This document shows positions 14,724 to 56,154 of a stretch of DNA of 64,000 bases, piece by piece. The position numbers and the translations under genes are program-made. Location of the stretch: NCBI GenBank assembly GCA_038215995.1, contig JBBQQL010000001.1, positions 15,514 through 79,513 on the forward strand, written 5' to 3'. This DNA comes from Lysobacterales bacterium. GTDB taxonomy: Bacteria > Pseudomonadota > Gammaproteobacteria > Xanthomonadales > Rhodanobacteraceae. The notes beneath the pieces were generated by a model. That model searched no databases. It was not told the origin of the DNA and saw only the letters and a list, made by a program, of their open reading frames with translations. Every line of letters starts with the position of its first letter. The first letter of the stretch is position 1.

Positions 14724-14982
14724 GATCGTTCTCCGTGGGGGACATGACACTTTCGAGGGTGATGTTGCAACCGCCATGCCAGCCGCCGAACGCCCCGCAG
14801 CCCGCATGGCTGTGGAGTTTTTTGGCATCAAGGAAACCACCCGTGTTGTCCGCGGACAGCCGCGCCCTCCTCCGGACAACGCCTTCGGACACCGTTCGAG
14901 GTTGCCTGCTTGGGGTCGGGAGATCATCGAGGCCACGGAAATTCGCCGTGGCAGAAAGCGGTAACCGTCAGTCTGTCCCGGC

Positions 14983-16107
14983 TCAGTACTTCACCAGCGT
15001 CAGTACCACTTCGACCACGATCAGCAGCACGATGGCGATCTCCAGCAGTTCGGCGCGACGACTTGACGCCTCTTCATAAAGCGCGGCATAGGTGTCCCTG
15101 ATGATGGCCAGCTTGCGGTCCACCGAGGCACTCAGGGCAGAAACGCGGAACAGCTCCAGGGTGGTGCTGTAGACACGCGCCAGATACACGTCCTCGGTGA
15201 CCTGCAAGGCGTTGTCCACTTTTTCGGTCAACTCGGTGGTCTCCGCGACCAACGTGTACAGGCCGCGTGCGAGGTGGGCAAAGCGACGCGACGCGAGCAG
15301 CGAAATCGCACCCCGCGCCTGCTCGACCCGCTTGTACATCCGCGGCAATTCGTCATCCAGCAAGGTGTCGTAATAACGGAACTCGACCAGCTGCGCATTG
15401 GCCACTTCGATCACGTCGGCCACATCGGAATCGCCACGCGGCTCATAGATGAAGGCGCGATCCCAGGTCAGCACCACCAGGTCGTCAGCGTAGTAGGAGT
15501 AGCTGCGTGCCAGCAGATCGCGCCGCGCCCCTTCGGACAACGCGCGCGTCTCACCCGACAACAGCCCGGCGAGGTCCACCCGCTCGCGCAGCTCGGTCGC
15601 ATCGATCGGCTCGTCCAGTGCGGACACGATACCGAGCAGGTAATCCTCCTGCAGCGAGGCGTCCGGTGCAGGACGATCCAGCGCGGGGGCGACCACGCGG
15701 CGCACCTCGTCGCGCAAGGCGATCCAGAACTCGTCCGGGGCCGTCGGCCCTACGGCACGATCAAGCGCGTTGAACTGCGCCACAAACGCCGGCCAGGATG
15801 CATCGGCCACGCCCACCCGCATAGCCAGCGCGGCAACCCCGAAGTCATACAGTCGCACGCTTGCCTGTGCCATCACGCTCTTGCCATCGAGCATCAGCTC
15901 GATCGGATCCATCAACATCAGCAGCGGCGCCACACCGAATGCGAGCGCCTTGGGTGAGGTATTGACCAGTCGCGTGCGGCTGCTGGCACCACCTGCGCGG
16001 GCAAGCCACGCCAGTTCGGCGGCGGCGAGGTCGATCGCGTAGGCGATATCGAACAGCCTCAGGGCGACCAGTTCACCCGACTTGATGGTGATATCAGATC
16101 CCTTCAT
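14983..16107 (-). CDS. Hypothetical protein, RMD1/DUF155-like with C-terminal TM helix
   Basis: RLFDIAYAIDL, YYDTLLDDELP, DVYLARVY, ends RRAELLEIAIVLLIVVEVVLTL; start uncertain. Confidence 0.6.
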   Translation of the reverse strand: MKGSDITIKSGELVALRLFDIAYAIDLAAAELAWLARAGGASSRTRLVNTSPKALAFGVAPLLMLMDPIELMLDGKSVMAQASVRLYDFGVAALAMRVGVADASWPAFVAQFNALDRAVGPTAPDEFWIALRDEVRRVVAPALDRPAPDASLQEDYLLGIVSALDEPIDATELRERVDLAGLLSGETRALSEGARRDLLARSYSYYADDLVVLTWDRAFIYEPRGDSDVADVIEVANAQLVEFRYYDTLLDDELPRMYKRVEQARGAISLLASRRFAHLARGLYTLVAETTELTEKVDNALQVTEDVYLARVYSTTLELFRVSALSASVDRKLAIIRDTYAALYEEASSRRAELLEIAIVLLIVVEVVLTLVKY

Positions 16108-49911: not shown

Positions 49912-50484
49912 TCAACCAGAAGCAGACGGCGCGGCCCGGTTGAAGGGGATGATCCGGGCTGCCGGCAACAGGCGCTGACGAAGCAGGTCGAGTGGGCGGT
50001 GATAGTCCATGTTGTAGCGCGTGTCACGACCCAGCGCAGGATGCTTGAACAGGCCATCCCACTCCTGGGCCGCGACCTCCGGCATGGAGCGGTCGCCGTG
50101 TTCGAGAGCCAACCAGAAGCCGAACTTGCGCTGATTGAGCGACGCCAGCAGGCTGCGATCGCGAGTGGCGGCGAAGGCGAAACCCGCATCGAAGCCATGC
50201 AGCTCGGCATCCACACCCGCCCCGCACAGCCCGACGTGCTCGCAAATCGCAGCGAACTGCAGCAGCGCGCGCTCGTGCAGCCGGCGCAGGCCTTCGGCGT
50301 TGCCCGGCAGCACCAGCACCGCGCCGGTGGCGGCATTGAGCATCACCACGAACGGCTGCCGACGCCAGAAGTCGATATCCGCATACCACTCGCCCAGCGG
50401 ATTGGTCTGTGGCGCCGGTTCCGTTGGCTTGGTGACCTGCTTCAGGCGCTTGAGCAGCTTGGCAGTGCAACGCAGGACGGTCAT
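49912..50484 (-). CDS. Hypothetical protein (DUF6933-like)
   Basis: VLRCTAKLLKRL, LGEWYA, TRDRSLLASLN. Confidence 0.65.
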   Translation of the reverse strand: MTVLRCTAKLLKRLKQVTKPTEPAPQTNPLGEWYADIDFWRRQPFVVMLNAATGAVLVLPGNAEGLRRLHERALLQFAAICEHVGLCGAGVDAELHGFDAGFAFAATRDRSLLASLNQRKFGFWLALEHGDRSMPEVAAQEWDGLFKHPALGRDTRYNMDYHRPLDLLRQRLLPAARIIPFNRAAPSASG

Positions 50485-50501
50485 GGGAATCTCTGCTCTC
50501 G

Positions 50502-50541
50502 GGGACACCGAAAGTTAGCGCAACTCAACTTCCGCTGTCCC
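50502..50541. repeat. REP-like imperfect palindrome
   Basis: GGGACACCGAAAGTT...AACTTCCGCTGTCCC; 15-bp arms with 2 mismatches; no U-tract. Confidence 0.55.
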
Positions 50542-50573: not shown

Positions 50574-51455
50574 TCACGAGCCCACCGGACAAATCCCGGC
50601 AAGATATCTTTCAACGATATCACGGCTTGCGCAATGCCATGCCACATGACTTCCGCGTCGCAGCGCAATCAATATCAGCGACCGGCCACCAAGATGTTTG
50701 TCGGTCGCCGTTTCATCGAACGTCAACCAGATGCTTCCCTGGTGAATCCGGACTTCGCTTACGTACTGACTGTGAAGGGATACCGGTGACAGCAGCCCCA
50801 GCGCACGGCTGTCTTCAGGCAAAGCGCCGTGATCTCGCAGATAGGCTTCAACGGCTGCGGTTGCGCCGGAAGCTGATGCCAACGCTTCATCTACCTGCCT
50901 TCGTGCAACGCTGACCTGGTGAAGCGACTTGGCGATCCAGGCCAGATTCGAAATCACGATCACCCCACAAGCAAACTGGAGCGCTTGAAACGCCGTCCAT
51001 CCCCGCGCTCGGCCGGCGGAGCGCCGCTCGCCCGTGCCGATGGATCTGCGCCGGTTGCCGCCCCTTGCGACGAGCCCCTTGTCGCCAGGCACCAGCATCT
51101 TCAGCAGAAACGCCAAAGCCATGAGCATGAACAGCACAAAGATACTCAAGAGCCACACGACAAGCGCCCAGAACAACCCGGGGCTTTCATCATGACTGTG
51201 GCAAGTCACGTGAATGGTAAACCGGCCCGATGCACAAACCACCCCATCCAGTCCGTCTGCCACGACTGAGGCATACAGCGCGAAAAAAAACATCAGCAAC
51301 ACGAAGGCCAGAACAAACTGGCACACCTTGTGGAACGCGACGCTTTCATGGAAAAAACGCGCCCATACGAACCACAGGATCACCCAGAAGGTGAACCCGA
51401 ATACCGTGGCATGGAAAAACGCGTTCGAACTCGCAAGACGAACCAGATGTTCCAT
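50574..51455 (-). CDS. Multi-TM protein fused to a C-terminal type IV pilin-like domain
   Basis: About four TM segments, then ARRQVDEALASASGATAAVEAY..SQYVSEVRI..VAWHCASRDIVERYLAGIC, resembling a PilA alpha1C/D-region. Confidence 0.7.
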   Translation of the reverse strand: MEHLVRLASSNAFFHATVFGFTFWVILWFVWARFFHESVAFHKVCQFVLAFVLLMFFFALYASVVADGLDGVVCASGRFTIHVTCHSHDESPGLFWALVVWLLSIFVLFMLMALAFLLKMLVPGDKGLVARGGNRRRSIGTGERRSAGRARGWTAFQALQFACGVIVISNLAWIAKSLHQVSVARRQVDEALASASGATAAVEAYLRDHGALPEDSRALGLLSPVSLHSQYVSEVRIHQGSIWLTFDETATDKHLGGRSLILIALRRGSHVAWHCASRDIVERYLAGICPVGS

Positions 51456-51536: not shown

Positions 51537-53054
51537 TCAGTATGCTGCCGCGGCGATGTCGAAGCGTTCGACCCGACCGACTTTTGCCAGCGCGGCCTGG
51601 ACGTCGGGACGTGCGGTAACGGTGTTCCAGCGTTGTTGGAATACCCTCATCGTCGGTGTCTGATCGCTGCGCAGGTAATGCTGCATCTCGACCAAGGCAG
51701 CGCTACGCCAATCCGGGGCCTGCAACCGATCGATCAGCAGCGCCGCAGCGGCATCGAGATCGCCATGGCTCAGCAGGGCGCGCTGCCATGTGCCGATGTC
51801 ATCGGTGCGGTGTTGCCGTAAATAAGCCATCTCCCTGGCGATGGAAGCGGAGTCGTTCTTCTCCATGGCGATCTGCAATCTGACGTAACTCAGTTGCATG
51901 CGCCCCATCGGCGACATGGCCCCCGGCTCGACGATGGCGGCGGCGGCCTTGTCGGGCTGGTCCAGGTCGGTCAACAAGCCGGCGAGGTTGATCGACTGGC
52001 TGACGTTCACGCCGCCACCCTCGGGGCGTCGTGCGGCACGCGTCATTTCACGCACGGCATCGTCCCAGTGACCCGCGTGCGCGAGCGCAAGCGAACGCTG
52101 GTTAAGCACCCAGTTGTAGCTCTCGCCGAAGTCGGTATAGGTCTTTTCGCCATCGCCGCGTTCGGCGTGCGCCACGGCGGCGTCACTGACCGCGAGAACC
52201 TCGGCGTTCTGCCCTTTCTCGAGCAGCAGATCCTGCAATCGCTGGACGGGCTCGAGCTGGTCAGGATGGGCCTTGATCCGCGCCCGCGCGGCCTGGATCT
52301 GCGCGGCCAGCAGGCGATCCACATCAAAGGTCTGTGGCTGGCCGCGGGTAAGCGGGTCAAAGCGCTTGTCGATGCGCATGCTCAGGGCCGCCTGGGCGGA
52401 GCGGATGCGCTGGGCGACCGTTGCGGCACGCTTGGGGTTGTTGTGCTCGATCTGCATCAGTGCCAGGTCGCGCCACAGGGTGTCGTAGGCGCTCTGGCCA
52501 GCCTGCCACTTCGCATCGAACAGTGCATCGAGCATGGCGCGGTCAACGTCGTCTTCATGCGCTGCGCGCAGCGCAAAGTGGAGCTGCGCCATGCCCTGCG
52601 GGCGCACGTTGTCGAGCTTGTCAGGCCATTGGCTGGCGATAGTCTCCACACACCGTGCGGCGTCAGGGTTGTCGCTTATGTACATCGCGGCAAACAGACG
52701 AATCAGCCACGCGCCGCCCGCCGCCTGATCGAGCCCGGTGGCCTTGATCGCGAGGCCGTGTGCCTTGGCGTAGTGCTGTGTCTGGAGCGCTATCGCAGCT
52801 GCCACGTTCAACGTCTGGAAGCGGAGCGCGGGCGCCAACTCGCCAAAACTCGAGGCGGCAATGATCCTGTCCAGCTCAGGTACGGCTTTTACATAGTCGC
52901 CATTGCTGACCTCGCCGAATACCTGCCTGAGTTTGAGCGTCGCCTCCTGGACCTCGGTGGATGGTTGCGCGCGGATCGGCTCAATTGACGCGCACGCCAC
53001 GCCAACACCCAGCAGCATCACCCACGCTGCAGCTATCGTGATCGTCCTGTTCAT
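51537..53054 (-). CDS. Secreted helical-repeat (TPR-like) hypothetical protein
   Basis: Signal peptide with ACA; repeated Ala/Leu-rich helices; RIDKRFDP, NVSQSINLA. Confidence 0.7.
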   Translation of the reverse strand: MNRTITIAAAWVMLLGVGVACASIEPIRAQPSTEVQEATLKLRQVFGEVSNGDYVKAVPELDRIIAASSFGELAPALRFQTLNVAAAIALQTQHYAKAHGLAIKATGLDQAAGGAWLIRLFAAMYISDNPDAARCVETIASQWPDKLDNVRPQGMAQLHFALRAAHEDDVDRAMLDALFDAKWQAGQSAYDTLWRDLALMQIEHNNPKRAATVAQRIRSAQAALSMRIDKRFDPLTRGQPQTFDVDRLLAAQIQAARARIKAHPDQLEPVQRLQDLLLEKGQNAEVLAVSDAAVAHAERGDGEKTYTDFGESYNWVLNQRSLALAHAGHWDDAVREMTRAARRPEGGGVNVSQSINLAGLLTDLDQPDKAAAAIVEPGAMSPMGRMQLSYVRLQIAMEKNDSASIAREMAYLRQHRTDDIGTWQRALLSHGDLDAAAALLIDRLQAPDWRSAALVEMQHYLRSDQTPTMRVFQQRWNTVTARPDVQAALAKVGRVERFDIAAAAY

Positions 53055-53135
53055 TTTTTCCCCTGACATGGTGGACGTGGCACTCACGCCACGCGCCTCT
53101 GCTCAATGCTGTAGCGTCCATGCGAACACACGAAT

Positions 53136-53190
53136 GGTGTCAGGGACAATTCGAGCAACTTGGTAGCCGACAAAAATCGTCCCTCACACC
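53136..53190. repeat. REP-like inverted repeat
   Basis: GGTGTCAGGGACAATT (53136-53151) pairs with AATCGTCCCTCACACC (53175-53190), 14/16 match. Confidence 0.65.
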
Positions 53191-53234
53191 TTTCCCCAAC
53201 ATGCCGGGCAAGCGGCCCCTGTTTTATCTGAGCG

Positions 53235-53459
53235 TCAGCGAATGAGCGTTTCGTACGGGGGCAGGTCGGCATGCTGGACACACGCCTGCTCATAGACTTT
53301 CCGCAGCTCCATCGCCGTGATCTCATAGGACTCGATGATTTCGTCGTAGTCCGCCTGCTCCGGACCGGCGACGCCGTCTCTCTCGGCACTGTATTGCCCG
53401 GTAACCTGATGGATGGCCTGAATCGACATCATCAGTGCATTGGCGCTGATTTCGAGCAT
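53235..53459 (-). CDS. Tsi2-like immunity protein (74 aa, acidic)
   Basis: LMMSIQAI...YEITAMELRKVYEQACVQHADLPPYETLI matches the recalled P. aeruginosa Tsi2 pattern LMVAIQCV...YDLAADDLKNAYEQA..YSGLPPYDRLI. Confidence 0.8.
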   Translation of the reverse strand: MLEISANALMMSIQAIHQVTGQYSAERDGVAGPEQADYDEIIESYEITAMELRKVYEQACVQHADLPPYETLIR

Positions 53460-53486
53460 GGTAGTTCCTCGTTGACCGGACGGTGA

Positions 53487-53942
53487 TTACTTGAGGCTGA
53501 TGCGGAGTTCGCTGGCCCTTGCCACGCAGTTGCGCGCAAGCGCGTCCAGTGCTCCGCGCAGGGCATCGGCCCCGAGCTCGCCTCCGGTGGCAACTTCGAT
53601 TTGCCAATGCGTGCTTTGGTACTTCTCGTTCCGACTCCCCTGCACCAGCTTCAAGGTCGCGGGAATCACGGTACCCTCAGGGAGTAGAAAATAGCTCCAG
53701 TACGTGTTGCCGAAGACCCCTCTCTTGTCCCAAAGCGACGTGCCATGGCCCTTGATGAAGTAGCCGTCCCTGTCACTGCGCCAATCCTGGCGAGTAACCG
53801 CTTTTCCTGCGACGGTCACGGTGCGCGGGGCTATGTCACCATGCAGGACGGCAGGCGCTGCCTGACCATCCTCGCTGATGACGCCGTAGGTGAACTCGTC
53901 CTTGCGCACGCTTCGGTACAGATGTTCCTTTATTTTTTCCAT
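53487..53942 (-). CDS. Tse2-like toxin (ADP-ribosyltransferase-like fold)
   Basis: LYRSV, GTSLWDKRGV, FLLPEGTVIPATLKLVQGSRNEKYQSTHWQI, LRGALDALARN align by eye with recalled Tse2 LYRAV, GTSVFDRAGV, FVIPDGTDIPPDLKVKQDSYNKRLQATHYTI, LMGQLDNFVRN. Confidence 0.8.
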   Translation of the reverse strand: MEKIKEHLYRSVRKDEFTYGVISEDGQAAPAVLHGDIAPRTVTVAGKAVTRQDWRSDRDGYFIKGHGTSLWDKRGVFGNTYWSYFLLPEGTVIPATLKLVQGSRNEKYQSTHWQIEVATGGELGADALRGALDALARNCVARASELRISLK

Positions 53943-54077
53943 GATCGAATCCGTGATTTGGAACCGGTGAGTGGACGACTGTAACCCTGAAACACCATCA
54001 GGAGCGGAGGACACCGCAGAGGCTCGCTCTCGATGTGACGACAGGTCATTCAACGTCCACCGTCCCGTTTTCCAGCA

Positions 54078-56107: not shown

Positions 56108-56154
56108 AGTTTGATCAAAAATTGTCCCTGGCACGAATGGCACTGACTTGAGCC

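Follow-up and report, generated by a model that had tools for sequence, protein, structure and literature searches.

The locus raises the question whether a compact toxin-immunity gene pair serves as cargo of a T6SS encoded elsewhere in the same genome, or acts as a stand-alone module within the cell that carries it. The pair lies in a window of 64,000 nucleotides (the whole stretch of DNA that was analysed), and the contig to which the window belongs (C1) is assigned to Rhodanobacter on the basis of its proteins; its ClpA shares 96% identity with named Rhodanobacter proteins. A sequence-only reading had recognized a Tse2/Tsi2-like pair in a host other than Pseudomonas and had left two alternatives, an orphan T6SS cargo effector and a stand-alone, possibly mobile toxin-antitoxin (TA) or defence module. 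The assignment to this family in a host other than Pseudomonas was supported by profile, fold and residue comparisons. Between the alternatives, the cargo effector was strongly favoured by the H1-type T6SS of the assembly, by the co-occurrence of the family with T6SS and by a related pair located inside a T6SS cluster. We consider it likely that this pair of the Tse2/Tsi2 family, encoded away from the apparatus, provides a cargo that the H1-type T6SS of the cell loads into its Hcp; its secretion, toxicity, NAD dependence and target we infer by computation only.

Gene layout and family assignment

Both genes are located on the minus strand. The tse2-like toxin gene (53487-53942; ATG start, TAA stop) encodes a basic protein of 151 aa (16.8 kDa, pI 9.04), and the tsi2-like immunity gene (53235-53459; ATG start, TGA stop) encodes an acidic protein of 74 aa with a pI of 4.28. 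Toxin stop and immunity start are separated by a spacer of 27 nt on the same strand (53460-53486, minus strand), in which a GAGGA Shine-Dalgarno sequence is found about 7 nt before the second ATG, and the two genes are read as one operon. The arrangement given in the sequence-only reading, a 151-aa ORF and, 27 bp behind it, an acidic ORF of 74 aa, was confirmed and its coordinates are correct. A longer reading of the toxin gene with 188 aa, starting from a TTG at 54053, found no support, as the relatives comprise about 151 aa and begin with MAKIEKHLYRS.

The toxin consists of a single ART-like domain. It matched the Pfam profile PF18648 (ADPRTs_Tse2) with 48 bits at a gathering cut-off of 26.6, whereby residues 10-142 were aligned to positions 21-135 of the 137 profile positions, and a scan of the whole assembly with this profile identified it as the only copy. 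In a phmmer search against PDB sequences the Tse2 chain 5AKO_C was found with 2.4e-10, the N-terminal third of the toxin lying outside the alignment. One of five AF2 models was confident (pLDDT 85.6, pTM 0.82), and the other four reached a pLDDT of 43-48. Comparison of the AF2 model with the PDB by Foldseek resulted in a single match at E <= 1e-3, which was again 5AKO_C (E 1.3e-7, TM 0.76). A C-terminal helix is predicted for residues 125-146, at the position aligned with the Hcp1-binding helix of Tse2.

The immunity protein scored narrowly above the cut-off of Pfam PF21643 (T6SS_Tsi2-like; 29.7 bits, cut-off 27) and with 54.6 bits under the equivalog cut-off of 70 of the NCBIfam model Tsi2_fam (NF052667). 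Going by these profile scores it is a member of the Tsi2 family, but not an equivalog by the NCBI criterion. By phmmer, four Tsi2 entries of the PDB were found over the full length (about 2e-7). The AF2 model is a two-helix hairpin (pLDDT 88.9), for which the ten best Foldseek matches in the PDB were all Tsi2 chains, 3RQ9, 4C18 and 5AKO_A among them (TM 0.86-0.92, rmsd 1.2-2.0 Å). The likeness of the two proteins to Tse2 and Tsi2, which had originally been judged by eye, is thus well above chance, with both Pfam cut-offs passed, clear phmmer matches and structural matches in the PDB to Tse2 only for the toxin and to Tsi2 only for the partner. Pfam revealed no HTH, RHH, AbrB or other DNA-binding domain in the immunity protein.

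Substitution of E38 or D45 of Tsi2 abolishes Tse2 binding and immunity (PMC3325213). At the aligned positions the immunity protein carries D39 and E46, and its YEQA and C-terminal DLPPY motifs as well as the gene order are those of Tsi2, as had been noted before; the same order is also found in the relatives. The closer relatives, from Rhodocyclaceae, Nevskia and Methylococcaceae and including the metagenomic loci L010 and L011, have the motif DYDEIIE.YEI around D39 and E46; the alphaproteobacterial clade diverges in this segment. Compared with Tsi2 (PA2703; 3RQ9, 3VPV, 4C18, 5AKO chain A; PF21643; NF052667), the immunity protein agrees in the two-helix hairpin (TM about 0.9, rmsd 1.2 Å), in its acidic character (pI 4.3 versus 4.1), in the acidic residues at both Tse2-binding positions, in the YEQA and LPPY motifs, in length and in gene order. 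It differs in a sequence identity of only about 29-30%, in the conservative exchanges of E38 to Asp and D45 to Glu, and in its score below the equivalog threshold. Both families are already represented in Pfam and NCBIfam, and UniRef already names one relative of the toxin "Tse2 family ADP-ribosyltransferase toxin"; the pair adds a further member to a family that is known and has its name already.

The leader directly 5' of the tse2-like ATG (53943-53960, minus strand) reads ...AAAUCACGGAUUCGAU-AUG. It contains the sequence CACGGAU, which overlaps the ribosome-binding site and resembles the CsrA/RsmA-binding core, A-N-GGA; this is a consensus match only. The H1-T6SS and the tse genes of P. aeruginosa are repressed by RsmA.

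Pocket residues, helix and proposed mode of action

According to a 2026 preprint (bioRxiv 10.64898/2026.06.15.732508), R14, T79, S80 and H122 form the predicted pocket of Tse2, and the variant T79A/S80A is its inactive form. In the phmmer and family alignments these residues correspond to R10, T68, S69 and H112 of the toxin. The equation of R10, S69 and H112 with the Arg, Ser and His of Tse2, proposed in the sequence-only reading, holds in these alignments, and T68 is to be added as the counterpart of T79. Among 66 full-length representatives of the family, R is conserved in 94%, T in 77%, S in 95% and H in 89%, and the G which precedes the T-S of the pocket in 98% (G-T-S 98/77/95%). The four pocket positions are among the most conserved of these 66 sequences, and their family-wide conservation supports the proposed active site of Tse2. 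As judged from the alignment, the divergent 151-aa clade keeps the pocket intact at about 33% identity to Tse2. The mechanism of Tse2 was still described as unknown in 2025 (PMC12133291); it is conceivable, though improbable, that the 151-aa clade becomes a tractable orthologue for finding the Tse2 target.

The main Hcp1 interface of Tse2 is the C-terminal helix R133-R156, and the exchange Q139E abolishes Hcp1 binding. In the toxin the equivalent of Q139 is Ala131, located within the helix predicted for the aligned region. Ala is found at this position in the majority of the family (73% of the 66 representatives) and also in the pair of genome G407 that is located in a T6SS cluster.

Compared with Tse2 (PA2702; 5AKO chain C; PF18648), the toxin shows the same fold and size class, no fusion to a delivery domain, the R/T/S/H pocket and a predicted C-terminal helix at the Hcp1-binding position. 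Moreover, its immunity gene is located directly downstream, the genes are encoded away from those of the apparatus, and the host has an Hcp1-type tube protein. The differences comprise a sequence identity of about 33-36% to the P. aeruginosa protein, Ala in place of Q139, the host Rhodanobacter (Xanthomonadales/Lysobacterales) and the distinct 151-aa subclade.

For the mode of action we propose that the small single-domain toxin would be loaded into the lumen of an Hcp1-type tube, mainly via its C-terminal helix. The T6SS would then fire it into neighbouring bacteria, where growth arrest would be brought about through the ADP-ribosyltransferase-like pocket formed by R10, T68, S69 and H112. In the producer and its sister cells the co-transcribed acidic two-helix immunity protein would bind the toxin and thereby occlude the pocket.

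The sequence-only reading had found no hcp, vgrG, PAAR or tss genes in the 64 kb and had regarded the missing T6SS context as remarkable. The first statement holds for the approximately 10 kb that were annotated around the pair; the second had to be given up, because tse2 of P. aeruginosa itself (PA2702) and the other Hcp1-dependent effector genes lie at scattered sites distant from the H1 cluster (PMC12133291), so that a pair without nearby tss genes is normal for this class. Three further Hcp1-dependent cargo proteins of P. aeruginosa, Tse1, Tse3 and Tse4, are comparable to the present toxin in being small, carried in the Hcp lumen and encoded in scattered bicistrons off the main cluster. 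They are unlike it in their unrelated folds and targets (peptidoglycan hydrolases and a pore former) and in their periplasmic immunity proteins, compared with a cytoplasmic pair here.

T6SS of the assembly and distribution of the family

Genes of a T6SS were found in the source assembly (4.19 Mb, 266 contigs, estimated contamination 3.3%) on the contigs C36, C88 and C105, which are tied to the window contig by binning only. C36 carries genes for a ppkA-like kinase, tssB, tssC, hcp, tagJ and tssE; the order tssB-tssC-hcp-tagJ-tssE is presumably that of the P. aeruginosa H1 cluster. On C88, the end of tssF, tssG, vgrG, fha and tssK were identified by Pfam or family search and a ClpV-like AAA+ ORF was judged by eye. 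C105 carries tssM. From gene content and Hcp similarity, the T6SS of the assembly is classed as H1-type and its tube protein as Hcp1-like. The best named matches of TssC are Dyella proteins (95-96%), followed by named Rhodanobacter proteins (93-94%). The same type of T6SS is also present in two further genomes of the genus, whose Hcps are 93% and 78% identical to the local one. Tetranucleotide composition of the window and T6SS contigs is unremarkable and uninformative on mis-binning either way. A 338-aa ORF without Pfam match (C88, 7549-8565, minus strand), which is located between clpV and vgrG beside a TPR-methyltransferase-like ORF, is a candidate T6SS effector or adaptor.

The best PDB match of the local Hcp is Hcp1 (PA0085) with 2.3e-38, other Hcps being found at about 1e-18. 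In the cryo-EM structure 15 residues of Hcp1 are in contact with Tse2, and the local protein, at an overall identity of 47%, has the same residue at each of these positions. As a control, the Hcps from 26 further T6SS loci were compared: Hcp1-type tubes keep 13-15 of the 15 residues with or without a Tse2 in the genome, and Tse2-negative relatives with an Hcp1-type Hcp also score 14-15. The contact residues were therefore rejected as Tse2-specific evidence; being a property of the whole Hcp1-type lineage, the 15 of 15 contacts denote compatibility and not specificity. Every Tse2-positive genome from which an Hcp was retrieved has an Hcp1-type lumen (13-15 of 15 residues), and two non-Hcp1 types, which keep 3-6 of the 15, were confined to Tse2-negative genomes. 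Among Hcp1-type tubes of 40-50% overall identity the 15 residues are near invariant. This qualifies the statement of the preprint that effector-contacting Hcp residues vary substantially between species (bioRxiv 10.64898/2026.06.15.732508). Within Rhodanobacter, the Hcps encoded next to tssC (loci L039-L065) are of at least three types, and two Hcp1-type lineages share no more than about 50% identity. The Hcps of the genomes G011 and G015, which are not of the Hcp1 type, show only 3-6 of the 15 Tse2-contact residues.

The Tse2 family is small. Among 1.84 billion representative proteins searched with a profile, only 112 members were found at E <= 1e-3. Nearly all of them are stand-alone proteins with a length of about 150 aa, which fits the Hcp lumen and counts for an Hcp cargo. 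The closest relatives of the toxin (151 aa, 64-74% identity) derived from genomes of Rhodocyclaceae, Nevskia, Methylococcaceae and Burkholderiaceae and from metagenomes, and a second clade with 46-49% identity comprises Marivita and other Rhodobacteraceae. Together with Rhodanobacteraceae, these findings extend the Tse2/Tsi2 family well past Pseudomonas. The toxin gene is tightly followed by a Tsi2-like gene in nine of nine relatives checked, and likewise in the genomes G031 and G407. In the three sets of relatives' contigs whose neighbouring genes were examined the surroundings were all different, and no T6SS genes were located beside the pair.

Within the order, eight of 401 genomes contain the family above the cut-off, all of them in the window's own bacterial family. 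TssC was present in nine of nine Tse2-positive genomes (these eight and one from the genus sample) and in 10 of 38 Tse2-negative ones, with a Fisher p of 7e-5 that ignores shared ancestry, the nine positives coming from three genera. In other classes, seven of nine Tse2-positive genomes have TssC, and the remaining two, both metagenome-assembled, have Hcp matches. Thus all 18 Tse2-positive genomes examined contain at least one T6SS hallmark; Tse2/Tsi2 was organized as a two-gene cassette each time, and the Hcp was of the Hcp1 type wherever it was retrieved.

The most direct linkage was found in G407, which belongs to the same family and another genus. Here a pair encoding a 155-aa Tse2-like and a 72-aa Tsi2-like protein (L037 8116-8814, corresponding to G407:C20 at about 184.1-184.8 kb) is located between tssG and clpV within the T6SS main cluster. 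The tssG-clpV gap of the source genome (C88, about 14901-14999) is empty. In the complete genome G376 of the same family, six Tse2-family matches above the Pfam cut-off were found on contig C1, one of them 36 kb from tssC; by their number they look like a large paralogous arsenal. Within the genus, G031 carries a pair of 147 aa and 81 aa (L035 4617-5325, corresponding to G031:C2 at about 444.6-445.3 kb), which belongs to a different subclade and is located at an unrelated locus. As far as can be judged from this comparison, it implies independent acquisitions within the genus. Such cassettes appear to have been gained horizontally more than once, because the present pair is slightly GC-poor and absent at the DNA level from the other sampled genomes of the genus and the G031 pair of another subclade is located elsewhere.

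Alternative readings and surroundings of the locus

Antitoxins of type II TA systems carry a DNA-binding domain and are usually encoded upstream of the toxin, and the systems are frequent on plasmids and prophages. The present pair resembles them in being bicistronic and in joining a basic toxin with an acidic protein as its inhibitor, which probably occludes the active site; this parallel in opposite charges was already noted for Tse2 and Tsi2 (PMC3325213). A stand-alone TA or anti-phage cassette, acting within its producer by addiction, stress arrest or abortive infection without use of a T6SS, would also be in line with the invariably compact two-gene organization in unrelated neighbourhoods, with the patchy distribution within the genus, with a GC content slightly below the genome mean (58-60% versus 63.8%) and with some metagenomic contigs on which the pair is found near RelE/MqsA-type TA genes or a transposase. 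We regard this reading as very improbable. The inhibitor is encoded downstream of the toxin and has no DNA-binding domain, tblastn detected relatives of the pair in none of 72,556 plasmids and none of 50,697 phage records, and the PADLOC-DB 2.0 models matched neither toxin nor partner at E <= 0.1. None of the 10 annotated ORFs flanking the pair encodes an integrase, a transposase or a phage protein, which together with the missing plasmid, phage and PADLOC matches speaks against the mobile TA or defence module of the sequence-only reading. The family instead tracks the T6SS, with a hallmark in each of the Tse2-positive genomes examined and one pair embedded in a T6SS cluster. To a variant in which a Tse2-type ART-like toxin was domesticated for intracellular TA function or abortive infection, and the co-occurrence with T6SS reflects shared ecology and not delivery, we give even less credence.

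Somewhat less remote, though still unlikely in our view, is that the pair is retained without being used for attack, i.e., that it is kept mainly for immunity against Tse2-type attack by neighbours and that this cell does not export the toxin, its Hcp failing to load it or the T6SS contigs stemming from another organism in the bin. The assembly is fragmented with the T6SS linked by binning, the T6SS is closest to Dyella and the window contig closest to Rhodanobacter, and TssC was not found in G024, the closest relative, a genome with a completeness of only 86%. However, further genomes of the genus have a T6SS of this type. The toxin lacks the Hcp-contact residue Q139, but Ala at this position is the family majority, including the pair inside the G407 cluster. 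Moreover, where orphan immunity genes occur, an intact toxin is usually missing. In the present pair the toxin ORF is intact, with every pocket residue and the C-terminal helix kept, which speaks for the toxin itself being under selection. The reading as a T6SS cargo encoded away from its apparatus is in our view the best explanation for the pair.

A mobile element or island as the carrier of the pair was rejected, since mobile genes are missing among the 10 flanking ORFs, the only tRNA is 47 kb off and the GC content drops only slightly. In the other sampled genomes of the genus no DNA resembling the pair was found. The genes flanking the pair are split over different contigs in relatives, and in G024, the closest genome, an unrelated 790-aa ORF follows the glyoxalase gene. 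A clean insertion boundary was not definable from the empty-site comparison within the genus.

A simple scan for promoters and terminators called no promoter and no canonical terminator at the pair. About 40 nt 3' of the immunity stop a REP-like palindrome is located, which is about 62 bp long (53132-53193, minus strand; stem of about 19 bp). On the transcript it forms a long hairpin which may end or stabilise the operon mRNA and which we place outside the toxin system proper; a 121-nt stretch around the element folds at -47 kcal/mol. Copies of the element with 81-94% identity were detected in the same genus, three on one contig of G054 and two on one contig of G023, and a partial copy is found on C120 of the source genome. 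A 15-nt inverted repeat (53137-53151 / 56120-56134) with one arm in this hairpin was discarded as near chance, about 0.3 being expected in 3.5 kb by estimate.

Further genes on the minus strand nearby encode a 293-aa protein (50574-51455) with a C-terminal Pilin domain (PF00114) and a hydrophobic N-terminal part that we interpret as membrane segments, and beside it a DUF6933 protein (49912-50508), at a distance of about 2 kb from the pair. In G026 a homologue with 73% DNA identity is present. Positions 52910-53049 represent the 5' end of a gene for a 516-aa TPR-like secreted protein. A copy of these 140 bp with 89% identity is located on the same contig about 19 kb away, outside the window (G000:C1:87761-87900), which suggests a paralogue of the TPR-like gene with the same N-terminal or signal region.
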